Source of the DNA: Deltaproteobacteria bacterium
GTDB taxonomy: Bacteria > Myxococcota_A > Polyangia > GCA-2747355 > JADLHG01
Length of the DNA stretch: 64,000 nucleotides
Reading direction: 5' to 3'
Assembly (NCBI GenBank): GCA_020848905.1
Contig: JADLHG010000054.1
Coordinates: forward strand, 1 to 64,000
Part shown: piece by piece, positions 4,013 to 17,870 of the stretch
How the letters are laid out: each line of letters opens with the position of its first letter
Position numbering within the stretch: position 1 is the first letter of the stretch
Made by a program: the position numbers and the translations under genes
The notes under the pieces: model-generated
What the model saw: only the letters and a program-made list of their open reading frames with translations
Told to the model about the DNA's origin: nothing
The model's database searches: none

Positions 4013-4273
4013 ATGCCGACCACGAAGAAGACCCGAACGTCGAGCGCCACCAAGGTTCCCGAGACCAGCGCGGTGACGGTCAAGAAAGTCCGCACGCGGA
4101 CGCGTACGCCGCGCCAAGGGGCCGTCGCGCCCCTCGTGGTGCGGGCGCCCGAGGAGCCGAGCTACGAGACGGTCGCCGTGCGAGCCTACGAGCTCTACCT
4201 GGGACGGGGCGGCGCTCACGGCTGCGACGTCGAGGACTGGCTGCAGGCCGAGCGCGAGCTGCGAGACGCGTAG
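4013..4273 (+). CDS. DUF2934-like small protein
   Basis: 86 aa, basic N-terminus, conserved YELYLxRGxxxGxxxxDWLxAEREL-type C-terminus. AAGGAGGG Shine-Dalgarno upstream. Confidence 0.5.
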   Translation: MPTTKKTRTSSATKVPETSAVTVKKVRTRTRTPRQGAVAPLVVRAPEEPSYETVAVRAYELYLGRGGAHGCDVEDWLQAERELRDA

Positions 4274-4281
4274 GGGGAAGA

Positions 4282-5508
4282 TCAATCTGCCGCCGGCGGC
4301 GCGGAGCGGCCGGGCAGCTCGATCCCCGCGGCCTGGCCCAGCGCCAGGAGCTGGCCGAGCGCCTCCGCGAGAAACGACAGCCCACGCCCTTCGCCCGAGG
4401 AGATCTGCGTGATCTGCACCGGGCCGAGGCTCCCCGCGAGGGCCTGCGCCAGCGCCGGGAGGGCGCGGGTCACGAGCTCGTAGCGAATGCGCGCGTCGGA
4501 GACCTCGTTGTCGAGCGCGCGGGTCTGCCGCTCGAGCGCGAGGCGTAGCTCTCCCTGGAGGCGCTCCGCGGCGGCCTGCGTCTCCGCCACGCGCGTGGCC
4601 GACGCGGCGGCTTGCTCGGCGAGCGCGAGGCGAGCCTCCTCCTGCAGCCGGTCGAGGGCGCACTGGGCCTGGGCGCGCTCGCGGGAGTGGGCGTGTTCCC
4701 TTTCGGCTGCGCGAGCGGCGAGCTCGGCGGCCTGCGCGGCGCGGTGCTCGTCGAGGGAGTGCTCGACGTCGGTGAGCTCGCGCGTCCGCGTGCGCTCGGC
4801 CAGGTCGGCGGCGAGCTGGGCCTGCCCCACGCGGGTACGCGCCCCCTCCTGGCTCAGGCGGACCTGCTCGTCGCGCGCTACCAGCGCCAGGCGCGCGCGC
4901 AGCTCGAGCTCGGCCCGGTAGGGGGCCTGGAGCTCGGAGAAGACCTTCTCGCTGAGGATGCGCACGTCCTGGATCGCGATCGTGTCGATCACCAGCCCCC
5001 AGCCCTGGTCAGCCGCATCGTCGGCGCGTCCGAGCCCCGAGACGACGGGGGCGATCTCCTGCAGCAGCTCGGCGGCCAGGCTCTCCTTGCGGCGGGTCAG
5101 GCAGGCCTCCACCGTGAGGCTCGCCACGAGGCGGCGCGCGGCGCCGACGAACATGTCCCGCAGCACGGCCTGGAGCTCGTCGAGTGCCGCCGTGCGCTCG
5201 GAGAAGTCCAGCATGCGCGAGGCGAGCAGGGGGTCGGCGATGCGATAGACGGCCACTCCGGTGACCGCGACGCCCACGCGCTCCGCCGTCACCTGGTCGG
5301 CGACGAAGGTCACGCGCTGGATCGTCGTCGGCAGCACGGTGTAGGTGTCCCCGGGCCAGAGAAAGCGACTCAGGCCCGGGCCGTGGGCGCGCAGGCGTCC
5401 GCGGCGCAGGACGATCAGGTACTCGCTCGGCTTGGCCGAGACGCGGCCCCAGCGCCGGGGACGCGTCGGGCGCGGGCTCGTCGCGGAGCTACGGCTCGGA
5501 TGCGACAT
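4282..5508 (-). CDS. SPFH/band-7 (flotillin-like) protein
   Basis: SPFH domain followed by a long Ala/Glu-rich coiled coil. ATG at 5508 is preceded by AGGAGG. Confidence 0.7.
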   Translation of the reverse strand: MSHPSRSSATSPRPTRPRRWGRVSAKPSEYLIVLRRGRLRAHGPGLSRFLWPGDTYTVLPTTIQRVTFVADQVTAERVGVAVTGVAVYRIADPLLASRMLDFSERTAALDELQAVLRDMFVGAARRLVASLTVEACLTRRKESLAAELLQEIAPVVSGLGRADDAADQGWGLVIDTIAIQDVRILSEKVFSELQAPYRAELELRARLALVARDEQVRLSQEGARTRVGQAQLAADLAERTRTRELTDVEHSLDEHRAAQAAELAARAAEREHAHSRERAQAQCALDRLQEEARLALAEQAAASATRVAETQAAAERLQGELRLALERQTRALDNEVSDARIRYELVTRALPALAQALAGSLGPVQITQISSGEGRGLSFLAEALGQLLALGQAAGIELPGRSAPPAAD

Positions 5509-5762
5509 GTGCAGTCCTCCTGCACAGGGCAAAGTGCACTGCGCGTGCCGCTCGCCGGGCGGGCGAGGGGGCCGAGATCACGCGGTGCGCGCCAGGCGGC
5601 CGCTCCAGGGCGGTGCGTTCGCCCGGGCGGTTGCGCCGAAATCGGGCGGGCGGCGCCGCGTCTCTCTGGCTCGCCGCCGCCGCGAATCCGAGGAGGACAG
5701 CCCGAGGGCGAAAGGCTTGACCGTCCCGAACGCCTTATGCATACTCACGCCGCGTTGTTCAT

Positions 5763-5836
5763 GCACCCATAGCTCAGCTGGATAGAGCATCGGTCTACGG
5801 AACCGAGGGTCGGAGGTTCGAATCCTTCTGGGTGCG
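5763..5836 (+). tRNA. tRNA-Arg (anticodon ACG)
   Basis: 74-nt cloverleaf read by hand: acceptor GCACCCA/TGGGTGC, D-arm GCTC..GAGC, anticodon stem TCGGT/ACCGA with loop CTACGGA, T-arm GGAGG-TTCGAAT-CCTTC, discriminator G. CCA is not encoded. Confidence 0.9.
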
Positions 5837-5849
5837 CGAAGAAGTCGAA

Positions 5850-5881
5850 GCCCCGCTGGCACCTAGCTAGCGGGGCTTTTT
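5850..5881 (+). terminator. rho-independent terminator after tRNA-Arg
   Basis: 8-bp GC-rich stem GCCCCGCT/AGCGGGGC followed by TTTTT. Confidence 0.7.
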
Positions 5882-6286
5882 GCTAGGACCCCTCTGCTCC
5901 CCCGACTTTGACCAAATCTTGACCAAACTCGTCGCCGGTCTCGAGCTTGGCTACCGCCGCCCGAAGGTCGTCCTCCTCGACCACGTTGTAGCGCTCGAAG
6001 ACGGCCCGCGTCCGGTGGCCGGACGCGGCCCCAGAGTCCGCATCGAGACTCCACCGTCAGGGTGGTCTGCCACGAGACGGCGCCACAGGCACCGTGCCGG
6101 AGTGCCATACACGCGGGGCGGAGGATCGAGAACGGACCCAGCGGCCAAGCCCTTGCGCAACGCAAGACTTGCGTCGTTAGGGCTCGGTGCCACTCGCTAG
6201 GTCGGGTCGGCCTCTCTGACGGTTGTCGGAGTCCGACGGCTATGCTATCCGATGTTCATGGGGCGCGTCGTGGGGGGTGGTTGGGC

Positions 6287-9112
6287 ATGACGGTGGACCG
6301 ACGCGGGCCCAAGCCTCCGGGGCCGCCAGACTTTCAATCCCTCTTCGAATCCGCGCCCGCGTTGCTCCTCGCGCTTGCACCCGATCTGTCGATCGTGGCG
6401 GCGAGTGATGCGTACCTCGCAGCCACCATGACCCGAAGGGAAGAGATCCTGGGCCGCGGGATTTTCGAGGTTTTCCCGGACAACCCGGACGACGCCAGCG
6501 CCGATGGGACTAGCAACCTCCGCGCCTCTCTCGAGCGGGTGCTGGCAACGCGCGCTGCGGACACCATGGCCGTCCAGAAGTACGACGTACGCGGTCCGGA
6601 CGGGAGCTTTCAGGTCAAGTACTGGAGCCCGAAGAACGTCCCCGTGCGCTCGGCCAGCGGCGAGCTGCTCTACATCCTGCACCGCGTAGAGGACGTCACC
6701 GAGCTCGTCCGGGCGAGCGAGATGGGCGAAGAGCTGCGCGATCGCACGCGCGAGATGGAGCAGGAGGTGCTTATCCGCAGCCGCGAACTGGCCGCCGCGA
6801 ACCGGGACCTGCGGGACGCGAACGCGCGGCTCGGCGAATTGGACGCGGTCAAGACCGCATTCTTCAGCAACGTGAGTCACGAGTTCCGTACGCCCCTGAC
6901 GCTGATGATCGGGCCCCTTGAGGACGCGCTCAGCGCATCGGAACCAGCGCTCGCGGGCGAGGCGCTGCAGATGGTCTGGCGTAACGCCTTGCGGCTCATG
7001 CGCCTCGTCAACGCGCTGCTCGACTTCTCACGCCTCGAGGCCGGCCGGCTTCAGGCGTCTTTCGAGCCAACCGATCTAGCGGTGACGACCACGTATCTGG
7101 CGAGCGCCTTTCGGTCGGCGGTCGAGCGCGTGGGTCTCGTCCTGGATGTCGCCTGCGACCCTCTGCCAGAGCCGGTCTACGTCGACCGTGGACTCTGGGA
7201 GAAGGTGGTGCTCAACCTTCTCTCGAACGCCCTGAAGTTCACCTTTGAGGGGTCGATCCGGGTGGCGCTCCGCTGGTGCGGCGACCACGTCGAGCTGGAG
7301 GTGCGGGATACGGGGACAGGGATCCCGGGCGAAGAGCTGCCGCACGTCTTCGAGCGCTTTCATCGCATTCAGGGCGCGCGGGCGCGCACGCATGAAGGCT
7401 CAGGGATCGGGCTCGCGCTGGTACACGATCTGATTGCGCTCCACGGTGGCACGGTTCGTGTCGCCAGCACGGTCGGCTCGGGCACGACCTTCACGGTATC
7501 GCTCCGACGAGGCTCTGCGCACCTGCCACCCGGGCGCATCCGCGAGCAGGGTCGCGACGAAGACGCATCAGCCGGCGCCAGGCCCTTCGTGCAAGAGGCG
7601 CTCCGGTGGGCGGGAGGCGCCCCCGTCTCGTTCACGAAGCCCACCACCCTCAATCCAGTTTCCGTCCCGCCGGCAGAGAGAGCGCGCATCCTTGTCGTAG
7701 ACGATAACGCCGATCTCCGCGACTACATGCGGTCCCTTCTCGGCGAGCTCTATGTCGTCGAGACCGCTATCGATGGCCTCGAAGGGATGAAGGCGGCCGA
7801 GCTCCACCGCCCCGACCTCATCCTGAGCGACGTGATGATGCCTCGGATGGACGGGTTCGCCCTGCTCCGGGCCCTCCGCGCGCACGCCACCTTGCGGAGC
7901 GTTCCCGTGATCCTGCTCTCCGCCCGCGCGGGTGACGACACCAACATAGCCGGGCTCGAGGCGGGTGCAGACGACTATCTCGTCAAGCCCTTTTCCGGCC
8001 GCGAGCTTCTCGCGCGGGTGCGCACGCACGTCGAGCTCCTTCACCATCGTGAGACGCTCGAGCGCTTCTTCGCGCTGTCCCTCGACATGCTCTGCGTCGC
8101 GAGTGTCGATGGGTATTTCAAGCGAGTGAACCCGGCCTTCGACGTGCTCGGATATACCGCCGAGGAGCTTACGGCGAGGCCGTTCCTAGAGTTCGTCCAC
8201 CCGGAGGATCGGGCGGCGACGGTTGCGGAGATCGACAAGCTCGCCCACAAGATCCCGACGCTCCACTTCGAGAACCGCTACCGGGGCAAGGACGGGTTGT
8301 ATCGGTGGCTTGCGTGGACCTGCGCTCCAGATCGAACCGGGACGATATTCGCCGTGGCCCGCGATGTGACCGAGGAGAAGCAATCGCGCGAGGCGCTCGA
8401 GCACGCCAAGGAGGCTGCAGACCGGGCAAACCGTGAGCTGGACGCGTTTTGCCACTCCGTGGCACACGATCTGCGCGCACCGCTGCGGAGCCTCGATGGC
8501 TTTAGCCTGGCGCTACTCGAGGACTTCGCCGACCGGCTCGACGACGAGGGGAAGAAGCATCTGTCGTTCATTCGCGAAGCGGCACAGCAGATGGCGCAGC
8601 TCATCGACGACCTGCTCGCCCTCTCGCGAGTGACGCGCAGCGAGCTGGAACGTGAGCCGGTGGACCTCACCGACTTGGCGCGAGCCACCGTATCCCGGCT
8701 TCAGTCCCGACATGCCGGCCGGCGGGTGCACGTGACCATCCAAGAGGGCCTCGCCGGTCTTGGTGACCCACGACTGCTCACCCTTGTGTTCGACAACCTC
8801 CTCGGCAATGCGTGGAAGTTCACGAGCAAGCGCGATCACGCACGCATCGAGTTCGGCGCGCGCGCGCAAGACGGTTGTCCGGTCTATTTCGTTGCCGACA
8901 ACGGAGCCGGGTTCGACATGACGTACGCGAATAAGCTCTTCGGCGTATTCCAGCGGCTGCACGCGGCCTCGGAGTTCGAGGGGAATGGCGTAGGACTCGC
9001 AACGGTGCAGCGAATCATCGGTCGGCACGGCGGACGTGTCTGGGCGGAGGCTGAGGTCGAGCGAGGCGCGACCTTCTACTTCACTCTTCCGGAAGAGATC
9101 CGCTCGTCATGA
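6287..9112 (+). CDS. hybrid sensor histidine kinase with two kinase cores (PAS-HisKA-HATPase-REC-PAS-HisKA-HATPase)
   Basis: First H-box SHEFRTPL with G1/G2 boxes (DTGTGIP, GSGIGLAL). Receiver with DD..D..K pattern. Second PAS, second H-box AHDLRAPL and second ATPase (DNGAGF, GNGVGL). Start could alternatively be ATG 6242. Confidence 0.85.
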   Translation: MTVDRRGPKPPGPPDFQSLFESAPALLLALAPDLSIVAASDAYLAATMTRREEILGRGIFEVFPDNPDDASADGTSNLRASLERVLATRAADTMAVQKYDVRGPDGSFQVKYWSPKNVPVRSASGELLYILHRVEDVTELVRASEMGEELRDRTREMEQEVLIRSRELAAANRDLRDANARLGELDAVKTAFFSNVSHEFRTPLTLMIGPLEDALSASEPALAGEALQMVWRNALRLMRLVNALLDFSRLEAGRLQASFEPTDLAVTTTYLASAFRSAVERVGLVLDVACDPLPEPVYVDRGLWEKVVLNLLSNALKFTFEGSIRVALRWCGDHVELEVRDTGTGIPGEELPHVFERFHRIQGARARTHEGSGIGLALVHDLIALHGGTVRVASTVGSGTTFTVSLRRGSAHLPPGRIREQGRDEDASAGARPFVQEALRWAGGAPVSFTKPTTLNPVSVPPAERARILVVDDNADLRDYMRSLLGELYVVETAIDGLEGMKAAELHRPDLILSDVMMPRMDGFALLRALRAHATLRSVPVILLSARAGDDTNIAGLEAGADDYLVKPFSGRELLARVRTHVELLHHRETLERFFALSLDMLCVASVDGYFKRVNPAFDVLGYTAEELTARPFLEFVHPEDRAATVAEIDKLAHKIPTLHFENRYRGKDGLYRWLAWTCAPDRTGTIFAVARDVTEEKQSREALEHAKEAADRANRELDAFCHSVAHDLRAPLRSLDGFSLALLEDFADRLDDEGKKHLSFIREAAQQMAQLIDDLLALSRVTRSELEREPVDLTDLARATVSRLQSRHAGRRVHVTIQEGLAGLGDPRLLTLVFDNLLGNAWKFTSKRDHARIEFGARAQDGCPVYFVADNGAGFDMTYANKLFGVFQRLHAASEFEGNGVGLATVQRIIGRHGGRVWAEAEVERGATFYFTLPEEIRSS

Positions 9113-9561
9113 CAACCGACAAGGTGATCTTGCTCGTGGAAGACAGCCCACGGGACGAAGCGTTGATCCTTCGGGCGCTGCGCAAGGGGAACATCCTCAA
9201 CCCCATCGTCGTAGCCCGCGACGGTGTCGAGGCGCTCGACTACTGCCTCGGCCGGGGGGCCTACAGCGAGCATCCTCCGCCCGTTCTGCCGCAGGTTGTG
9301 CTGCTCGACCTGAAACTTCCGAAGGTCGACGGACTCGAGGTGTTGAGGACCCTGCGCGCTACCGCGGCGACCAGGCTTCTTCCGGTCGTGGTGCTCACCT
9401 CCTCCGTCGAGGACCAGGATCTGGTCCAGAGTTACAGCCTCGGAGCGAATAGCTATGTCCGCAAGCCTGTAGATTTCGCGCAGTTCATCGATGCCGTTCG
9501 GCAGCTCGGGCTCTACTGGCTCGTCCTCAACCAGAACACACCCACCCTGAGGAGTCCGTAG
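9109..9561 (+). CDS. single-domain response regulator (receiver only)
   Basis: 150-aa REC domain (LLVEDSPRDE ... VLLDLKLP ... K). ATGA start/stop overlap with the upstream kinase. Confidence 0.85.
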   Translation: MTTDKVILLVEDSPRDEALILRALRKGNILNPIVVARDGVEALDYCLGRGAYSEHPPPVLPQVVLLDLKLPKVDGLEVLRTLRATAATRLLPVVVLTSSVEDQDLVQSYSLGANSYVRKPVDFAQFIDAVRQLGLYWLVLNQNTPTLRSP

Positions 9562-9564
9562 TCG

Positions 9565-12500
9565 ATGGGGAAGCCGCTCCGAGCCTTGATCGTCGAGGAT
9601 GTAGAGAAGGATGCGTTGCTCCTCGTCCGGGAACTCAAGCGCGGGGGCTACGATGTCACGTTCGAGCGTGTGGACACCGCCGACGCAATGGGGGACGCTC
9701 TGGCGCGCCGCACCTGGGATGTCGTGCTTTCGGATTACTCGATGCCCACCTTCAGCGCCCCGCAGGCTCTGGCGGTCGTCAAGGCGCACTCGCTCGACCT
9801 GCCCTTCATAATCGTTTCTGGCACGGTGAATGAAGACATCGCCGTGGCGGCCATCCATGCTGGAGCGCATGACTTCATGGCCAAGAACAAGCTCCAGCGC
9901 CTCATTCCGGCCATCGAACGGGAGCGGCGTAATGCCGCCATGCGAGCCGAGCAGGCCACCATGCAACAGCAGCTCCTCCAGTCCCAGAGGATGGAGGCCA
10001 TGGGTCAGCTCGCGGGTGGGATTGCCCACGACTTCAACAACATCCTCGCCGTGATCTTGTCGTACGCCACCTTCGTGCGGGACGCACTGCCCGAGGGGGA
10101 CGAGCGACGTGCGGATGTGGTCGAGGTGCTGAAGGGCGCCGACCGCGCGGCGGGACTCACGCGCCAGCTCCTCGCCTTCTGCCGGCAGCAGCCGGCGGCC
10201 GCGCGGCCCACGGACCTGAACGAGAGTCTCACGCAGCTTCACAAGCTCCTTGTCCGGACCCTTGGCGACGACATCGCACTGAGCGTGCTCCCTTCTGCGC
10301 GACCCGCCGTCGTGCGCATCGATCCGGTGCAATTCGATCAGATCGTCCTGAACCTGGCGGTCAACGCGCGAGACGCGATGCCTGGAGGCGGAGAGCTGCG
10401 CATCGTCGTGCGTAATGACCAGGACGAGGAGGCGAGGCCGGTTGTGCGTCTCAGCGTTTCGGACACGGGCACCGGGATGGACGAGGCGACGCAGCGACGC
10501 ATTTTCGAGCCCTTCTTCACGACCAAGGAGCGCGGCAAGGGAACAGGCCTTGGGCTCGCCACGTGCTTCGCGATCGTCGAGAAGGTGGGAGGGCGGATAC
10601 GCGTCGAGAGTGCACCGGGACGAGGTAGCCAGTTCACCGTGGATCTGCCTCTCTGCGACGAGCCAGCGCATGACCAGGGGCGGGACTGGGACATCCCACT
10701 ACCCGCGAGTGGGGAGGCGGTGCTCGTAGTGGAAGACGAGCCGTCACTTAGGCGCGCGACGGCGCGCGTCCTCGAGCGCGCAGGCTACCGGGTGCAGGTG
10801 GCCTCCGACAGCTTGGAGGCGATGCGGCGGATCGATGCCCTCGGGGATCGTTTGCGCGTCGTCGTCACCGATGTGGTGATGCCGGGGGCGAGCGGCGTCG
10901 ACGTGGCCGCATACGTGGCGCGCACGGCGCCGCATTGCCGCGTCATCTTGACCTCGGGATACTTGACGGACGCGGTACATCGGCGCCAGCCCGAGGAGCT
11001 GCCCATGCTCTGGAAGCCCGTCCCACCGCGTGACCTCCTGAGGGCCGTCGCTCAGGCAATCTCCGAAGGCACGGCATCCGAACGAACGCGGTCCACGGAG
11101 TCACCGGCGAGCCGCCCTGGCGAGCTCGTTCTCGTGATCGACTGCGACGCTCCGTCACGGCGCGCGATTGTGAGCGCTCTCAACACCGCAGGGTACCGTG
11201 CGCTCGAGGCAGAGGCTGTTGCTACTGCTCGGGCCCTGGTCGAGGGCGGCGCGGAGCCAATGTGGATTCTGTGCGAGCAGGGGCTCCTGCATGGCGACGG
11301 GGAGGCGCAGTTTCTCCGGTGGATCGAGGTAGACCGGCCAAACCTCATCGAGCGCGTACTGATCCTGTCCGACCGAGCGACGAACGACGGGTGCTCGCAC
11401 GGGGTCCGATGGCGAGAGGATCTTGTGATCTCCAAGCCCGTGGACGTGAGCGAGTTGCTTTGGCGGTTGGTGCGGACTTCGGCCGACGCGCCGTCGAGGA
11501 CGGAGATAGGCGTCCCATTCGGGAGCTCCGGTGACCTGGCGCAGCAAGCGCGCGCGGGTGGAACGCTACGGCGCAGCGATGCAACGGGAGACAACGAGGG
11601 GGGTCGGGGACACCTGCGCGAGTCCGTTCTCGTGGTGGAGGACGACGAGTCTCTTGCTGGCGCTGTATCTCGTCTCCTCGGTGGCGCGGGTTACGAAGTT
11701 CTCGTCGCCGGGTTGCTGGCCGATGCGCGTAGCGCGCTGGCGGCCAAAGAGTTCGACGTCCTAGTCGTTGATCTTGGGCTGCCGGACGGTGGCGGCCTCG
11801 ACCTGGTTCGTGAGTTGCGCGGCGGGCGGTCGGACGTCCCCATCGTGCTGATGACGGCATCGCCGTCGGTGGATTCGGCTGCTGAGGCAATCCGGTGGCG
11901 GGTCAGCGAGTACCTCCCCAAACCCTTTCCGCCGGACGATCTGCTTCGTGTGGTACGCACGACCGTGGACGGCGGACGCATGGCGCGCGTGCGGAACAAG
12001 CTTCTTGCGGCACGCTTTGGCGGCAACGAGTTCGTGGCGGACCTGCGCGGCACCGAGCAGGCTTTCTTGCGAGCCCTACCGAAGATCTGGATCGCCTACC
12101 AGCCCATCGTACGAGGAGGTGATGGGTCCCTCTTCGGCTACGAGGCGCTCCTCCGCTGCCACGAACCGGATCTGGCCTCTCCCTTGCGGCTGTTTGCAGC
12201 GGCCGAGGTGCTGGGACGGGTCCACGAGGTCGGGCGTGCCGTCCGTGCCGTCGTGGCCTCGACGATGCTCGAACACCGCGAACGCCTGGAGGCCATTTTT
12301 GTCAACGTGCATCCGTCGGAGCTGCGGGCGGACGTCCTGGCTGACAGCGCCGAGGCCCTCCTGCCCCTGGCACGCCGTGTGGTGCTCGAGGTGACCGAGC
12401 GAGCGTCGCTCGACCGGGGCGCGAAGCTCGACGAGGAGCTCGCCCACATCCGAGGTCGCGGTTACCGCCTGGCGGTGGACGACCTCGGCGAGGGCTACGC

Positions 12501-12798
12501 GGGCCTTTCCAGCGTGGCTACCCTCCGGCCGGACATGGTGAAGATCGACATGTCGCTCGTGCGAGACGTCCATCGCGCGGCTCTCAAGCGGGACATTATC
12601 GCTGGGCTCGTCGACACCGCGCGGCGGGCAGGGATCGTGGTGGTCGCCGAGGGCGTCGAGACCGTGGACGAGCGCGACACCCTCGTGACGCTCGGCTGTG
12701 ACCTCCTACAGGGGTATCTGTTCGCCAAGCCGGGGCCAGCATTTCCCGTTCCACGTACGAACTTCAGATCGGATCCTGCCGCGGCATCTGAAGGCTGA
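9565..12798 (+). CDS. multidomain REC-HisKA-HATPase-REC-pseudoREC-REC-EAL signalling protein (c-di-GMP phosphodiesterase output)
   Basis: N-terminal REC. H-box AHDFNN and ATPase boxes (DTGTGMD, GTGLGLA). Three further receiver-like domains, the middle one lacking the phospho-acceptor Asp. C-terminal EAL domain with QPIV, ExLxR, EVTE, DDLGEGYAG, KIDMS, EGVET and QGYLF motifs. GAGGAG Shine-Dalgarno upstream. Starts 4 nt after the response-regulator stop. Confidence 0.85.
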   Translation: MGKPLRALIVEDVEKDALLLVRELKRGGYDVTFERVDTADAMGDALARRTWDVVLSDYSMPTFSAPQALAVVKAHSLDLPFIIVSGTVNEDIAVAAIHAGAHDFMAKNKLQRLIPAIERERRNAAMRAEQATMQQQLLQSQRMEAMGQLAGGIAHDFNNILAVILSYATFVRDALPEGDERRADVVEVLKGADRAAGLTRQLLAFCRQQPAAARPTDLNESLTQLHKLLVRTLGDDIALSVLPSARPAVVRIDPVQFDQIVLNLAVNARDAMPGGGELRIVVRNDQDEEARPVVRLSVSDTGTGMDEATQRRIFEPFFTTKERGKGTGLGLATCFAIVEKVGGRIRVESAPGRGSQFTVDLPLCDEPAHDQGRDWDIPLPASGEAVLVVEDEPSLRRATARVLERAGYRVQVASDSLEAMRRIDALGDRLRVVVTDVVMPGASGVDVAAYVARTAPHCRVILTSGYLTDAVHRRQPEELPMLWKPVPPRDLLRAVAQAISEGTASERTRSTESPASRPGELVLVIDCDAPSRRAIVSALNTAGYRALEAEAVATARALVEGGAEPMWILCEQGLLHGDGEAQFLRWIEVDRPNLIERVLILSDRATNDGCSHGVRWREDLVISKPVDVSELLWRLVRTSADAPSRTEIGVPFGSSGDLAQQARAGGTLRRSDATGDNEGGRGHLRESVLVVEDDESLAGAVSRLLGGAGYEVLVAGLLADARSALAAKEFDVLVVDLGLPDGGGLDLVRELRGGRSDVPIVLMTASPSVDSAAEAIRWRVSEYLPKPFPPDDLLRVVRTTVDGGRMARVRNKLLAARFGGNEFVADLRGTEQAFLRALPKIWIAYQPIVRGGDGSLFGYEALLRCHEPDLASPLRLFAAAEVLGRVHEVGRAVRAVVASTMLEHRERLEAIFVNVHPSELRADVLADSAEALLPLARRVVLEVTERASLDRGAKLDEELAHIRGRGYRLAVDDLGEGYAGLSSVATLRPDMVKIDMSLVRDVHRAALKRDIIAGLVDTARRAGIVVVAEGVETVDERDTLVTLGCDLLQGYLFAKPGPAFPVPRTNFRSDPAAASEG

Positions 12799-13072: not shown

Positions 13073-16039
13073 CTACTTCTTCTCGCGCGGATAGGGCGGC
13101 TTGTACGGCCTGGAGATGGCGTGCACCTTGTCCGCCGCGAACTGCCGATCGACGCCGTGGCAGGAGGCGCAGGTCTCCTTCTCGTCACCGCTGTAGGGCT
13201 CCGCCGGCGTCGGATCGAAGGTGTTGAGCATGCCGTGCAAGATCGCGCTATCCCGGTCGTGGCAGGACAGGCACGCGAGGCGGCTCGGACGCTGCTTCCA
13301 GTAGTCGGCCTTGGCGTGGCAGGTGGTGCAGTTGCGGATGTCCTGAGGGAAGATGCGCGCGGCGAAGTTGACCGTCGGGTTGTAGGCGGGGGCCACCTCC
13401 AGCGGCTTGTCGAGGTAGTGTCCGTAGTGGACGCCGTGGACGCGGCGCGAGAGGGGCGCTGCGCCGAACCCGTTGTTCGAGTCGGAGTTCTTGGCCCACC
13501 CGGACCTGCCCTTGAGCTGCCGATCGTAGTCGTGGCAGGAGCGACACAAATCCGTGTCGAACTTCACGGCCCAGTAGTTCTCGTGGATCGCGGTGTTTGC
13601 GTGGCAGGAGGAGCAGTTCGTCGCGTTGTACTCATCGACGGCCTTTGTCCCCACCTGGAAGTTCAGCTTCGCCACACCGCCGCAGACGTGGCCGTCGGGG
13701 CAGGTGATGCCCGAGGGGACCATCTCCACGAAGGCGGTGTACGTGCCGGGGGCCAATCCCTTGACGTCATCGAGCTGGTACTCGACGAATCCGTTGGCAC
13801 CGGGGGTGCGCTTGACCTTGGGATCGTCGTCGCGCGGGTCGGCGGGGACGTTGAGATGGTTCGCCGGATAGGAGTCGGTCTCCACCGGCACCGCGATGCC
13901 CGCGGGAAACTCGAGCGCCGACCCCACGGTGCTGGCGAGGACCTCGACCGAGGAGGTCGCTCCTCTCGAGTTGCTCTTGATGGTCAGCGTCGGAGCGGCG
14001 CTGGACCCGGAGGCCGACGCCGTCGCCACGGCCTTGAACGTGGCGTTGGCGTTGAGCCAGGCCGCAGCCTCCGCCGCGGTCGCGGCCGCGAGGTTGGCAA
14101 AGGTCCCGGAGGAGATGGGGATGATGATGGCGGCCCCGCCGTCGATCTTTACCCGCAGGTCTGTCGTAGTGGAGAGACTCCAGGGGCCAGCCTTCTTGCA
14201 GGTGACCGCCGCGCGAATCATCGCCTCGCCTCGAGCCGCCGTGGTCAAGACCGGCATCGCCTGCTGCGAGCGTGGACCGCTGACGAAGAGGTTGAAGCGG
14301 AGCCAGGCGGGCGGCTTGATGGCGGTCGGGTCCGCGATCACTCCCTTGCTGTCCTTGAGCACGATCTTCACCGTCGGAGCCTCGCCCCCCACGTAATGCG
14401 TGCCGTTCGCCGGCGGCGTCATGCTGAGCTCGGCGGTAGGCTGGACGAGCGGCTCGATCTCGTGTGACTTCGCCACGGGCACGGTGCCGTTCGGGCCGTG
14501 GCAGTTCGCGCACGTGCCGTCGGTCTGCTTCCCGCCCAGGTGCACCGCGAGCTGGCACATCCCTGTCGTCGCGTTGCACGTGGATTCCTTGTTGAAGTCC
14601 GCGACGCAATCCGTGCTCTCCTTGCACTTGCCGGCCTTGGGACGTCCCTGTACGCGCGGTGGCGAGAGCACGCCGCTGGCTGCATCGAGGTTGTCGTGGC
14701 AGCTCGCGCAGGCCTGCGTCGAGGGCTTGGTCTTCCACGAGTCGTCGAGGTGGCACTTGGTGCAGTTGCGAGGATTGGCCGGAAAGCGGACGCCCGGGTT
14801 AGAGCCCACGCCGCCCTTGGCCTGGGAGGTGTAATCCCGGAAGTCACCCGTCACGGGATCGATGTTGAAGAGGCTGCTGAGGCCCCTCGTGGGCTCGCAC
14901 ACGTGGGCGGTTCCGGGTGCCCCGCAGCCCCCGCCCATGTGGACGCCGTGTACGCGCCGCACGATCGCGTCGGAGACTCGGTTTGTCGACTGGCAGGGGC
15001 TCTCACCCTGCTTGCCGCAGTAGGCGGCGTAGCCGTCCTGGTTGTGGCAGTTCTTGCAAGTGCGGACAGGATCGGAGTCGATGGCGTAGTTTCCGACGGC
15101 AGCGCCCTCGCGATCGATGTGGTGGAGGTAGGTCATGCCGCTGAGGGCGCCCTTGTGGCAATCGGCGCAGTTGCCGACGATCTCCTTCTCCACCGCGGCG
15201 GCGCCGAGCTGGAGCTCCTGAACCGGGAAGGCCTGGTCGATGGGAAAGTCCTTCGAGATCGCCCAGAAGCTCACCAGGTACGTCCCCGGCTCCTCGGTCG
15301 TGACGGGCTCGAGAGTGTAGGTCAGGACGTTCCCCTTCACCGCGAGGTTGGTCTTCACCGGCTTCTCGCAGGTGGTGGTGCCGCCCGCGGTGGCGCAGGT
15401 CCAGTCGGTTCCGCCCTTGGCGTCGGTCGCGGTCGAGGTGCACGTGTGCTTCGCCGCCGAAACGCTGCACTTCCAGGAATACGCGCCGCCCGGGGTGGGG
15501 AGTGCGGTGAGATCGACGAAGTGATGCTCGGTCGCGGTGCGCGCGGCGCTCACGTTGAGCAGCTTGGACGCCGTCTTCGCCTTCAGCGCGCTGTTCGGAC
15601 CCACCATCATGAGGCGGGCCTGGCTCAGGCCCTCGCGAGGAATCGGAGCGCCGGCCTCGTCGGTGACCGTGATGGTGATGACCGGCCTGTCACCGGGGAC
15701 GAAGTGCGTGCTGTTCGAGGGCTTGGAGACCTCGAGCTTGACCCGCAGCCCGGGGCTGAATCCGGCATTCATGCCATTGGTGCCGTTCGTCCCTGGCGCG
15801 CCGGCGGCGCCGGGGTCGCCCTTGGTCCCGGCGGCGCCGGGGTCACCCTTGGTCCCAGCGGCGCCGGGGTCGCCCTTTTCTCCGGACGTACCGGGCTCGC
15901 CCTTGGCGCCGGGCTCCCCCTTGCTACCGTCGCAGCTCCCGAGGAGACCGATCAACCCGGCCAGCAACACGACCCGGGCGGGCCCGGCCGCCGACCGCTT
16001 GTAGAACGCCAACAGTCCATCGGCCAAAGCTCTCGTCAT
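13073..16039 (-). CDS. lipoprotein decaheme c-type cytochrome with N-terminal collagen-like Gly-X-Y repeat
   Basis: Signal peptide with lipobox LLGSC. About 15 consecutive G-X-Y triplets (GEPGAKGEPGTSGEKGDPGAAGTKGDPGAAG...). Ten CXXCH heme-binding motifs: CADCH, CKNCH, CTKCH, CASCH, CANCH, CSSCH, CRSCH, CTTCH, CLSCH, CASCH. GGAGAG upstream of ATG 16039. Confidence 0.8.
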   Translation of the reverse strand: MTRALADGLLAFYKRSAAGPARVVLLAGLIGLLGSCDGSKGEPGAKGEPGTSGEKGDPGAAGTKGDPGAAGTKGDPGAAGAPGTNGTNGMNAGFSPGLRVKLEVSKPSNSTHFVPGDRPVITITVTDEAGAPIPREGLSQARLMMVGPNSALKAKTASKLLNVSAARTATEHHFVDLTALPTPGGAYSWKCSVSAAKHTCTSTATDAKGGTDWTCATAGGTTTCEKPVKTNLAVKGNVLTYTLEPVTTEEPGTYLVSFWAISKDFPIDQAFPVQELQLGAAAVEKEIVGNCADCHKGALSGMTYLHHIDREGAAVGNYAIDSDPVRTCKNCHNQDGYAAYCGKQGESPCQSTNRVSDAIVRRVHGVHMGGGCGAPGTAHVCEPTRGLSSLFNIDPVTGDFRDYTSQAKGGVGSNPGVRFPANPRNCTKCHLDDSWKTKPSTQACASCHDNLDAASGVLSPPRVQGRPKAGKCKESTDCVADFNKESTCNATTGMCQLAVHLGGKQTDGTCANCHGPNGTVPVAKSHEIEPLVQPTAELSMTPPANGTHYVGGEAPTVKIVLKDSKGVIADPTAIKPPAWLRFNLFVSGPRSQQAMPVLTTAARGEAMIRAAVTCKKAGPWSLSTTTDLRVKIDGGAAIIIPISSGTFANLAAATAAEAAAWLNANATFKAVATASASGSSAAPTLTIKSNSRGATSSVEVLASTVGSALEFPAGIAVPVETDSYPANHLNVPADPRDDDPKVKRTPGANGFVEYQLDDVKGLAPGTYTAFVEMVPSGITCPDGHVCGGVAKLNFQVGTKAVDEYNATNCSSCHANTAIHENYWAVKFDTDLCRSCHDYDRQLKGRSGWAKNSDSNNGFGAAPLSRRVHGVHYGHYLDKPLEVAPAYNPTVNFAARIFPQDIRNCTTCHAKADYWKQRPSRLACLSCHDRDSAILHGMLNTFDPTPAEPYSGDEKETCASCHGVDRQFAADKVHAISRPYKPPYPREKK
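15790..15930 (-). repeat. near-perfect tandem nucleotide repeats encoding the collagen-like G-X-Y tract
   Basis: Unit gcggcgccggggtc(a/g)cccttggtccc occurs three times in tandem on the plus strand. Confidence 0.6.
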
Positions 16040-16087
16040 CGTCAACTCTCCGGGGATAAGGGATGGGGTGGTGCGCGCCCGGCCTAA

Positions 16088-16103
16088 GCAGCTTGCGTGC
16101 CAA
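16088..16103 (-). promoter_or_regulatory. candidate sigma54 (-24/-12) promoter for the decaheme cytochrome gene
   Basis: Minus-strand TTGGCACGCAAGCTGC has GG and GC at the consensus spacing of TGGCACG-N4-TTGCW. It lies about 50 nt upstream of ATG 16039 and next to a sigma54 activator gene. Confidence 0.4.
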
Positions 16104-16271
16104 TGCCGCAGCCTGCGATATCGCTGAGGAACGAGCAGCCGCGGGGCCGAGATGTCGCACGGCACCGGCGTAGCCGGAGTAGGCGCGCCAAAAATATTAT
16201 TCTTTATCGCGGCGTTAACTTGCAGCCGAAATGTCGGCCGCCTCCGGGCGAAAGGTCGGCCCCCTGGCGGC

Positions 16272-17870
16272 CTACCGGGTCCGCTTTAACTTGCTCTGCA
16301 GGGTGCTGCGCGGCACGCCGAGGATCTTCGCGGCGCGATGCAAGTTGCCGCCGGCCTTCTCCTGCGCCCAGTCGAGCACCGCCTGCTGGAACTGCTCCGT
16401 GAGCTGCGGTAGCTCGACAGAGGCCGCCTGGTCGAGGTGGAGTGCAAACGGGAGGGGTTGCTCGTCGGGGGTCTCCCCCCGCAAGTACTCGGGGAGGAAG
16501 GTCGGCGTCACGTCCGGCCCCGGGCAAAGGACGAGGGCCGACTCCATGGCGCGGCGCAGCTCCCTCACGTTTCCAGGCCAGGGATGACGCTGGAGGAGGT
16601 CTGCGGCACCCACCGAGAGGCGCTTCTTCGGCTGCCCCTCGGTGGTCGCCAACAGCGCGAGGAAGTGCGTGGCCAGCAGCACGATGTCCTCGCCGCGCTC
16701 GCGTAGCGGCGGCATATGGAGCCTGAGCCCGTTGAGCCGGTAATACAGGTCGTCGCGGAACCGCTGAGTCCTCACGTGGCCCAGCGATAGATCCGCCTTG
16801 GTGGTCGCCAGCACCCGGACATCCACGGCGATCTCGTCGGTGCCGCCCACCCGAGCGAAGCGGCCCTCCTGAAGCACGCGCAACAGCTTCGCTTGCAGCT
16901 CGATCGGCAAGTCGTCGATGTCGTCGAGGAGCAGCGTTCCTCCGTGGGCTCGTTCGAAGCATCCACGGCGGGACTGCGTGGCGCCGGTGAAGGCGCCTTT
17001 CTCGTGCCCGAGCAACTCGCTCTCGGCGAGCTCTCTCGGGATGGCGCCGCACGCGACCACGACGAAGGGTTCCTGTCGCCGCGGTCCCTGAAGATGCAGG
17101 GCACGAGCCGCCATCTCCTTGCCCGTTCCGGTCTCGCCGACGATGAGGACTGGCGCGGACGCCTTGGCGAAGATGGCGAGGCGCTCATGGACCTTTTGCA
17201 TGGCGGCCGACCTGCCGATCAGCCCCGAGCCACCACCCTCCGCGCTACCCACCAGCGCCTTGAGCGAGGAGAGCTCGCGCCGTGCCGTCGATAGCTCGCG
17301 CAACTGTGCGAGCCGCACCTCGAGCTCCATCGTCCGTTCCGCCACCTTCCGCTCGAGACCGTCTTTGAGGGCTCGCAGCTCCACCTCGAGGCGTTTGCGC
17401 GCAGTGATGTCCCGGACGAAGTGAACGAAGACTGGACGTCCTTCTGCCGTGACGAGTTCGACGGGGTAGACCAGAGACTCCACCCAGCTCCCGGTTCGCG
17501 CGTCGAAGAACTCTCGCTCGGCAGGCCCGCCTTCGGCCACGGACGCCTCGAGGGGGCAGCCCGGAAAGGGCTCGTTGAGCCCGTGCACCTCCCTGGGGCA
17601 ATAGCAGCCGAGCAGCTCCCGGGAGCTGCGCTTGAGGTCTCTCTGCATGGCGCGGTTGCTGGCGAGCACCCTGTGGGCGGAGTCCAGGACCAGCACGTAG
17701 AAGGGCAACGCGTCCAGCAGCGGCTGCAGCAACTCGAGCGCCGCCGGCGGTAGCGGGAGCCCGGGACTCGGGTGTGCGCCGTCGTCGCCTGCTGCCGGCG
17801 CGCGCTGATCAGGTTTAGTCTGCACCGGGTTCGTGACGTTGAGTCTCGCATGAGGGGCCTCGTCCCGCAA
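16272..17870 (-). CDS. sigma54-dependent transcriptional activator (PAS - AAA+ sigma54-interaction - Fis-type HTH)
   Basis: Walker A GETGTGKE, GAFTGA motif, and C-terminal HTH (ILGVPRSTLQSKLK). Track ORF starts with TTG at 17870 and has no nearby in-frame ATG. Confidence 0.85.
   Translation of the reverse strand: MRDEAPHARLNVTNPVQTKPDQRAPAAGDDGAHPSPGLPLPPAALELLQPLLDALPFYVLVLDSAHRVLASNRAMQRDLKRSSRELLGCYCPREVHGLNEPFPGCPLEASVAEGGPAEREFFDARTGSWVESLVYPVELVTAEGRPVFVHFVRDITARKRLEVELRALKDGLERKVAERTMELEVRLAQLRELSTARRELSSLKALVGSAEGGGSGLIGRSAAMQKVHERLAIFAKASAPVLIVGETGTGKEMAARALHLQGPRRQEPFVVVACGAIPRELAESELLGHEKGAFTGATQSRRGCFERAHGGTLLLDDIDDLPIELQAKLLRVLQEGRFARVGGTDEIAVDVRVLATTKADLSLGHVRTQRFRDDLYYRLNGLRLHMPPLRERGEDIVLLATHFLALLATTEGQPKKRLSVGAADLLQRHPWPGNVRELRRAMESALVLCPGPDVTPTFLPEYLRGETPDEQPLPFALHLDQAASVELPQLTEQFQQAVLDWAQEKAGGNLHRAAKILGVPRSTLQSKLKRTR

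Follow-up and report, generated by a model that had tools for sequence, protein, structure and literature searches.

The window analyzed here is a stretch of 64,000 nucleotides (nt) from contig JADLHG010000054.1 of assembly GCA_020848905.1, the metagenome-assembled genome of an uncultured Myxococcota (Polyangiales-like) bacterium. Near its start lie three genes that encode, in order, a double sensor kinase (gene 1), a lone receiver (gene 2), and a protein in which a histidine kinase (HK) core is joined to four receiver-fold domains and an EAL domain of the type that hydrolyzes cyclic di-GMP (c-di-GMP) (gene 3) (Table 1). Judged from sequence, the three genes are a real signaling operon. On balance, we favor the view that this operon forms a cascade of receiver-controlled kinases that ends in control of c-di-GMP breakdown.

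The genes are tightly packed on the forward strand, at the positions given in an earlier note that had been made from this DNA and a list of its open reading frames (ORFs). Gene 1 and gene 2 overlap by ATGA. Gene 2 ends in TAG (9559-9561), and the ATG of gene 3, with GAGGAG 10 nt upstream, follows after a gap of 3 nt and not of 4 nt, as had been stated. The same junction geometry (4-nt overlap, 3-nt spacer) is found in three other loci (L005, L006, and L008), although the proteins are only 64%-77% identical, and a terminator scan detected no terminator-like site inside the operon. Both observations uphold the earlier call of a three-gene operon, and gene 2, for which Pfam returned Response_reg only, is indeed the bare receiver described there, overlapping gene 1. 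The frame of gene 1 is open from position 6062, and a near-identical database protein (P0121) starts 15 codons before the start listed in Table 1, at ATG 6242.

Gene 1 encodes the domains PAS1-DHp1-CA1-REC-PAS2-DHp2-CA2 (in Pfam, PAS_4, HisKA, HATPase_c, Response_reg, PAS_3/PAS_9, HisKA, and HATPase_c). The best solved relatives of kinase core 1 are SrrB and HK853, while those of kinase core 2, whose N, G1, and G2 boxes lie at amino acids (aa) 838, 869, and 899, are the bacteriophytochrome kinase modules 8uph, 9ys3, and 8f71. In 14 full-length homologs, both cores keep their H, N, G1, F, and G2 boxes and the receiver keeps its D-D-D-S-K residues; the tandem HisKA and HATPase cores noted previously are thus both intact. 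More than 12 full-length relatives are 61%-73% identical to gene 1. Since the longest apolar run is only 15 residues, no membrane helix is evident. A separate set of hundreds of proteins of ~820 aa (P0139-P0240) matches only the first 61% of gene 1 (PAS-HK-REC). These proteins end in HATPase_c_2 (RsbW-like) and not in PAS-HK, are closer in length to the LvrA model discussed below, and constitute a widespread sister architecture of gene 1.

The gene 2 receiver is, by its structural matches, of the phytochrome response regulator (Rcp1) type: it matched 5brj (1.8e-43), RcpA (1k68), Rcp1 (1i3c), and RcpB (1k66) in the PDB. Its identity is 73%-77% across four related loci. Kinase core 2 resembles bacteriophytochromes and the gene 2 receiver is closest to Rcp1, RcpA, and RcpB, which suggests that the two form a pair.

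Table 1. Features of the operon. Receiver residues are those aligned to CheY positions D12/D13/D57/T87/K109, followed by the residue at the switch position.
Feature	Positions	Strand	Receiver residues; switch	Description
Gene 1	6287-9112	+		Soluble double sensor kinase, 941 aa (956 aa from ATG 6242); ORF and Pfam
Gene 1 PAS1	6344-6712	+		Sensor, aa 20-142; Pfam PAS_4, 2e-20
Gene 1 kinase core 1	6851-7507	+		HisKA aa 189-253, His198 (SHEFRTPL); HATPase_c aa 305-407; Pfam
Gene 1 internal receiver	7688-8023	+	D D D S K; Tyr	aa 468-579, acceptor Asp515; Pfam Response_reg, 3e-27
Gene 1 PAS2	8087-8374	+		aa 601-696; Pfam PAS_3 and PAS_9
Gene 1 kinase core 2	8438-9094	+		~aa 718-936; His727 in AHDLRAPL; second HisKA and HATPase_c
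Gene 2	9109-9561	+	E D D T K; Tyr	Stand-alone receiver, 150 aa, acceptor Asp67, Rcp1 type; Pfam Response_reg, 1e-17
Gene 3	9565-12798	+		Fusion protein, 1077 aa, REC1-signaling helix-DHp-CA-REC2-REC3 (decayed)-REC4-EAL; ORF and Pfam
Gene 3 REC1	9586-9915	+	E D D S K; Phe	aa 8-117, Asp57; LvrB-type input receiver; Pfam 51.5 bits
Gene 3 signaling helix and kinase core 3	9883-10653	+		His155 (AHDFNN); CA aa 253-363; Pfam HisKA 28.7 bits, HATPase_c 92.6 bits
Gene 3 REC2	10714-11043	+	E D D S K; Met	aa 384-493, Asp436; CckA-Rec/CpdR-like; Pfam 61.6 bits
Gene 3 REC3	11128-11463	+	D C E S K; Val	aa 522-633; apparently decayed receiver, beta3-alpha3 loop remodeled
Disordered linker, REC3 to REC4	11485-11616	+		aa 641-684, 44 residues; AlphaFold2 predicted local distance difference test (pLDDT) 24-35
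Gene 3 REC4	11626-11955	+	E D D T K; Tyr	aa 688-797, Asp736; NtrC/FixJ-like, Thr and Tyr switch; Pfam 77.8 bits
Gene 3 EAL	12085-12732	+		aa 841-1056, complete catalytic set; Pfam 167.4 bits

Gene 3 and its relatives

The gene 3 product is identical to a protein deposited at NCBI as 'MAG: response regulator [Deltaproteobacteria bacterium]' (P0001), and the proteins nearest to it are from metagenome bins of Polyangiales and Myxococcales. Pfam confirmed the order REC-HK-REC-pseudoREC-REC-EAL that had been proposed for it, with seven Pfam-type domains rather than five, and the domain scores of all three proteins are far beyond chance. An AlphaFold2 model of gene 3 (mean pLDDT 79) contained five well-formed globular units plus REC3. 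In this model, one continuous helix (aa 107-174) runs from REC1 into DHp and contains His155. The best solved relative of REC1 is LvrB (8vc9). Kinase core 3 matched the DHp-CA structure of CckA (5idj, 1.8e-41), and its H, N, G1, and G2 boxes are kept in 41 homologs.

Comparison of the active sites revealed that all three kinase cores of the operon are intact, as are five of the six receivers, the exception being REC3. An aromatic switch residue is present in the gene 1 receiver, gene 2, REC1, and REC4, and absent from REC2 and REC3. REC2 has Met at this position, carries an LTSGY (FATGUY-like) motif, and matched the CpdR and CckA models of NCBIfam; its alpha4 region was modeled with low confidence. 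Motifs of this type are typical of non-allosteric 'intermediary' receivers (PMC9981736). Helix alpha5 of REC4 runs on as a long helix (aa 790-817) to the EAL domain.

The EAL domain contains all catalytic and metal-binding residues (E860-A-L-x-R864, N914, E942/E945, D972-D973, K993, E1029, and Q1049). It aligns with the active enzymes DosP and BlrP1 (1.3e-25) with the catalytic residues matched and no metal-binding residue missing, which agrees with the catalytic integrity claimed earlier, and these residues are kept in most of the 41 homologs. The domain therefore looks catalytically competent. ARAGORN also reported a 92-nt tRNA-Arg(CCT) within the EAL coding region (12488-12579, +); nothing was detected there at the Rfam gathering threshold, and this call is most likely spurious.

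The HK-REC-REC-REC-EAL core of gene 3 is found in about 40 protein clusters, with either a REC1-type receiver or PAS modules at the N terminus. Two related loci (L005 and L008) consist of a double kinase gene, a gene for a 150-aa receiver that overlaps it by ATGA, and, after a 3-nt gap, distinct genes for REC-HK-REC (512 or 517 aa) and then REC-EAL (393 or 394 aa). Using BLAST, we found that aa 1-470 of gene 3 match the split REC-HK-REC proteins and aa 688-1064 the split REC-EAL proteins, with 42%-43% identity to those of L005 and L008; nothing in the split loci corresponds to REC3 and the linker. By these alignments, REC-HK-REC and REC-EAL, which are separate genes in related loci, have been fused in gene 3. 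Since gene 3 fuses the kinase with a response regulator that is its neighbor elsewhere, the fusion is good evidence that both work together.

Other loci vary this arrangement. The three genes occur in the same order in a Polyangiales bin (L001), and L006 contains the first three genes without the EAL gene. In L091, a kinase gene, an overlapping lone receiver, and a 3-nt spacer precede a gene 3 relative, and the upstream kinase is a different one. Relatives of gene 3 that are fronted by REC1 always lie directly behind a sensor kinase gene. Additional c-di-GMP-related genes accompany some of these loci: REC-GGDEF and a second REC-EAL lie by the cascade in L008 (13052-15726), as does PAS-GGDEF in L091 (10023-11318), while L090 has a Ser/Thr-kinase-PilZ fusion (4088-5371) upstream of a sensor kinase.

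Sequence identity is unevenly distributed along these operons. Gene 1, gene 2, and REC1 are 64%-77% identical across loci (65%-74% for REC1 against the REC1 of split-type genes), whereas the kinase and REC2 that follow REC1 are only 33%-41% identical to their L005, L006, and L008 counterparts. Instead, kinase core 3 and REC2 are closest (55%-77%) to PAS-fronted HK-REC-REC-REC-EAL proteins. By this pattern of identity, genes 1 and 2 and REC1 form a conserved input cassette, behind which the kinase has been swapped: at the boundary between REC1 and the helix, the cassette is attached to different kinase modules. The co-conservation of REC1 with genes 1 and 2, and the position of REC1-fronted relatives behind sensor kinase genes, support REC1 as the site where the signal enters gene 3. 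When species-representative genomes were scanned with the generic motifs G[IV]AHDFNN and NARDAMPxG, the scan returned only unspecific HDFNN kinases (≤46% identity) and thus no taxonomic census of the architecture.

A proposed kinase cascade

Among the closest precedents for gene 1 and the front of gene 3 are two Leptospira proteins studied by experiment. LvrA (PAS-HK-REC-HK) phosphorylates either its own receiver or Asp56 of LvrB (PMC5863495), and the phosphorylated receiver of LvrB drives coiled-coil formation that frees the catalytic domain (PMC13269768). LvrA was the top NCBIfam match of gene 1 (668 bits, aa 14-593, profile positions 3-595 of 819; curated cut-off 1200 bits, NF047465). In gene 3, aa 4-363 span the whole LvrB model (210.9 bits; cut-off 500 bits, NF047466), and aa 687-1055 match the PvrR model (118 bits; cut-off 580 bits, NF052596). 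Moreover, aa 7-366 of gene 3 align to the full length of the LvrB structure (8vc9, E = 1.4e-48), with Asp57 and His155 conserved and a linker that is shorter by exactly 7 residues, or one heptad.

The model that we consider somewhat the most probable, drawn by analogy with these proteins, is a receiver-controlled kinase cascade: the upstream kinase would phosphorylate REC1, phospho-REC1 would activate kinase core 3, and phosphorylated REC4 would control c-di-GMP hydrolysis. From the genes, domains, active sites, homologies, gene order, and pattern of fusion and fission described above, we infer each transfer of phosphoryl groups, the way in which it runs, and what it does to the EAL domain, as follows. 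The operon would be cytoplasmic and would link two PAS-sensed inputs to c-di-GMP breakdown through receiver-controlled kinases in series. PAS1 would control kinase core 1, which would phosphorylate the internal receiver of gene 1; this receiver and PAS2 would control or feed kinase core 2, whose natural partner would be the lone receiver of gene 2. Like LvrA acting on LvrB, gene 1 would phosphorylate REC1 of gene 3, either directly or with the gene 2 receiver in between. Phospho-REC1 would then zip the signaling helix into a coiled coil and release the catalytic domain, allowing kinase core 3 to autophosphorylate on His155. Passage of this phosphoryl group to REC4, a full allosteric switch joined by a helix to the EAL domain, would change phosphodiesterase activity. 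REC2, which is CckA-Rec-like and presumably non-allosteric, may be a sink or intermediary that competes for this group, while REC3, no longer phosphorylatable, may have been kept as a spacer or adaptor that connects kinase and output module.

Scanning the three proteins against Pfam, whole or by segment, revealed no Hpt domain; the only Hpt-related match was a sub-threshold HPTransfase inside CA3, and in the AlphaFold2 model, the linkers of gene 3 leave no room for a further domain. With no Hpt domain, there is no evident classical relay (His-Asp-His-Asp) along the receiver array. The earlier note had read the operon as a multi-step phosphorelay. In outline this interpretation stands, but the classical relay does not, given that none of the three proteins has an Hpt domain; the nature assigned to the pseudo-receiver also changes (see below), and the fusion in gene 3 had been missed.

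Several observations weigh against the cascade. From a hybrid kinase whose receiver is CckA-Rec-like, the phosphoryl group normally passes to an Hpt or ChpT-like protein. As the operon encodes no such protein, the route from His155 to REC4 is uncertain. For LvrA, LvrB, CckA, and PvrR, every model score falls well short of the cut-off, so the proteins are architectural relatives of these regulators and not orthologs. Coupling between genes 2 and 3 is not universal, since a gap of ~330 nt separates them in L001, and in L007 the double kinase stands alone. A promoter scan detected no promoter-like site upstream of gene 1, its sole site (5717-5745) being the promoter of a tRNA gene described below. 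Finally, PvrR, the closest known REC-EAL regulator, kept its in vivo activity when carrying the D57N substitution (PMC3842833).

A relay that dispenses with Hpt domains, in the form known from TodS, is the main rival to the cascade; it seems to us unlikely, if worth taking seriously. Here, phosphoryl groups would move from His198 to Asp515, His727, an Asp in gene 2 or REC1, His155, and finally Asp436 or Asp736, with the second and third DHp domains serving as phosphotransferases instead of allosterically switched autokinases. Gene 1 has the seven-domain order of TodS, whose His-Asp-His-Asp relay uses the second kinase core and has been demonstrated (PMC4321377), and the alternating transmitter (T) and receiver (R) domains fit the 'TRTR' class of Williams and Whitworth. 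REC2 and the gene 2 protein could shuttle phosphoryl groups, as FATGUY-type receivers do (PMC9981736). However, the ATP-binding boxes are complete in all three CA domains, so none looks reduced to a pure transferase. In addition, the step from REC1 to DHp3 matches LvrB, in which receiver phosphorylation acts allosterically (PMC13269768), and no sequence-level match between gene 1 and TodS was obtained.

It is decidedly unlikely, in our estimate, that the EAL domain is constitutive or controlled otherwise than by phosphorylated REC4, with the kinase signaling mainly to unlinked regulators and the fusion only co-localizing the two. The PvrR D57N result is what this explanation would predict, and LvrC, the partner of LvrB, is encoded elsewhere in the genome (PMC13269768). 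The L006 operon, which has no EAL gene, and P0036, a REC1-PAS-HK-REC-REC protein without EAL, also fit. Against it, REC4 keeps its acceptor Asp, Thr, Lys, and aromatic switch, which are kept in most homologs, and REC-EAL is either fused to the kinase or encoded by the very next gene (L001, L005, L008, and the ~40 protein clusters).

In the proposed cascade, REC3 would be inert. As the earlier note had claimed, this middle receiver has no phospho-acceptor Asp: in its WILCEQ segment, the acceptor position is Glu571 (GAG, 11275-11277), and the second acidic residue has become Cys527. With the quintet D-C-E-S-K, both the acceptor Asp and one metal-binding acid are missing. On its own, REC3 scored 22.3 bits in Pfam (E = 1.6e-4), below the 30.2-bit cut-off, and AlphaFold2 kept the order of strands and helices and left alpha4 unmodeled. 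Among 24 aligned homologs, 20 have the canonical E-D-D-T/S-K residues and the usual LCDLSLPDGSG loop, which reads LCEQGLLHGDG in the window; the pseudo-receiver is thus no built-in feature of the family, contrary to the earlier note. REC3 of P0019, P0021, and P0026 is degenerate in other ways. The window REC3 is only 24%-34% identical to most orthologous REC3 domains, and its identity relative to REC2 and REC4 gives a ratio of 0.59 versus 0.84 for other pairs, making it the fastest-diverging domain in this lineage. This low relative identity looks like relaxed constraint, and REC3 itself looks like the lineage-specific decay of a once-functional receiver, not a conserved pseudo-receiver. At the DNA level, the first strands of REC3 and REC4 (11120-11149 and 11618-11647) are 77% identical over 30 nt, which could be the trace of an internal receiver duplication or chance.

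Alternatively, REC3 might be a working pseudo-receiver, either because Glu571 provides a phosphomimetic 'on' surface or because the domain, by analogy with ShkA, binds c-di-GMP and gives substrate feedback. At the acceptor position of pseudo-receivers, Asp is most often replaced by Glu, which can be phosphomimetic (PMC12632262), and this makes a retained role possible. The Thr/Ser and Lys positions are retained, the predicted fold is largely kept, and the pseudo-receiver of ShkA, a DHp-CA-pseudoREC-REC protein, binds c-di-GMP (PMC6969517). Kinases of the ShkA type carry the binding residues on the alpha4-beta5-alpha5 face of this domain, together with a DDR motif in the linker. Nevertheless, the canonical residues of most homologs, the differing decay in the remaining proteins, the low identity ratio, and the unmodeled alpha4 argue against a working REC3, which we regard as very improbable. 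We give the same low credence to a three-tier series of autokinases (core 1-receiver-core 2-receiver-core 3-receiver-EAL) in which REC3 has been re-used as a regulator. If this were true and REC3 bound c-di-GMP, the substrate of the EAL domain would feed back on the kinase that controls it. To our knowledge, a self-contained feedback module of kinase and second messenger of this kind has not been described.

Lastly, a chance juxtaposition of independent two-component genes without functional connection is disfavored to the point of being scarcely credible: such genes abound in Myxococcota genomes, the double kinase occurs by itself in L007, and L002 has a gene 3 homolog with a different, convergent HK and REC, but the same gene order and junction geometry recur in several loci at 64%-77% identity, REC1 is co-conserved with genes 1 and 2, and REC-EAL undergoes fusion and fission with the kinase.

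Flanking genes

Directly upstream of the operon is tRNA-Arg(ACG) (5763-5837, +), detected by ARAGORN and by Rfam (65.8 bits). Its 3′ flank (within 5838-6286) consists of a GC-rich hairpin with a T run and of ~400 nt without a convincing gene. We considered whether a minus-strand peptide encoded here (5866-6036, SGHRTRAVFERYNVVEEDDLRAAVAKLE) was the C terminus of a tyrosine recombinase, and found no match in Pfam, PHROGs, a plasmid tblastn search, or a HMMER search of 1.8 billion proteins. A search for an att-like direct repeat of the tRNA end was also negative. The G+C content of the window is ~68%. At third codon positions, it is 0.79-0.81 in the three genes versus 0.88-0.92 in the flanking genes (4282-5532 and 13073-16165), which may reflect a different origin or lower expression. 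With neither an integrase match nor a tRNA-end repeat, location of the operon in an integrated island is not supported; only the lower third-position G+C remains.

Downstream, a convergent gene (13073-16165, -) encodes a protein of ~1030 aa with MtrC/MtrF-like multiheme cytochrome domains and repeated CXXCH-type motifs. Its N terminus contains a collagen-like Gly-X-Y repeat that is visible in the DNA as repeats with a 27-nt period (15774-15933); a multiheme cytochrome with a collagen-like repeat is an unusual combination. Adjoining this gene is one for a PAS-containing sigma-54 activator with AAA+ and Fis-type helix-turn-helix domains (16272-17870, -).

Comparison with known systems

The Lvr system shares with the window locus a hybrid double kinase followed, in one operon, by a receiver-controlled kinase, and the front of gene 3 has the REC-signaling helix-DHp-CA architecture of LvrB (8vc9 alignment; AlphaFold2 helix 107-174). 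The two systems differ in that gene 1 has an extra PAS domain and a second core of the phytochrome type, the two kinase genes are separated by one for a lone receiver, and gene 3 has two extra receivers. Moreover, the output is a fused REC-EAL here and an unlinked REC-anti-sigma factor, LvrC, in Lvr.

Gene 1 also resembles TodS of the Pseudomonas TodS/TodT system (as well as TmoS and StyS), being likewise soluble and having the same order, PAS-DHp-CA-REC-PAS-DHp-CA. The passage on TodS in PMC3018481, citing Busch 2009, gives it a His1-Asp1-His2-Asp2 relay of the T-R-T-R type. Both autokinase cores are intact in gene 1, and a receiver gene comes next (T-R-T, then R). However, the partner here is a lone Rcp1-type receiver, with no adjacent NarL-type DNA-binding regulator like TodT, and a third kinase follows in the locus. 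Proteins with two transmitters have been described but are rare, accounting for 51 of 4650 hybrid kinases (PMC3018481).

The C-terminal part of gene 3 has the two-domain layout, REC4-helix-EAL, and the full catalytic set of the REC-EAL regulators PvrR, RocR, and VieA, and RocR (3sy8) was among its PDB matches. Unlike in these regulators, REC-EAL and its presumed kinase form a single polypeptide. Core 3 and REC2 match CckA models, core 3 the 5idj structure, and REC2 has the LTSGY motif and poorly ordered alpha4 of CckA-Rec (PMC9981736). In contrast to CckA, gene 3 lacks a membrane or PAS input, and a ChpT-like transferase is absent from its vicinity. By structure-match alignment, a CckA-like c-di-GMP site is not conserved in CA3. 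The residues that we take to form this site in CckA (Y514, K518, and W523) read F, E, and R. In ShkA and PleD, too, a receiver-fold domain that cannot be phosphorylated follows a kinase or receiver and precedes another receiver (PMC6969517, PMC12632262), although their pseudo-receivers are conserved and functional, whereas REC3 is degenerate only in some lineages.

We found nothing in the literature specific to histidine kinase-EAL fusions, or to tandem kinases beyond TodS and Lvr. For receiver-controlled histidine kinases, a mechanistic prototype has become available only recently (LvrB, 2026), and the partners of such kinases, being encoded elsewhere in the genome, have in most cases escaped identification. 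In the operons described here, the REC-EAL partner is the next gene or is fused to the kinase, so that the genome itself shows the wiring, and the conserved input cassette is seen plugged onto different kinase modules. The gene 3 family is thereby a convenient natural system in which to study target choice by receiver-controlled kinases, and it also suits questions about the role of extra receivers in hybrid kinases and about two-component control of c-di-GMP levels. The locus reveals no new kind of biochemistry and is no new kind of system. Every part of it is of a known kind; what sets it apart is the fused arrangement of these parts, which is uncharacterized.

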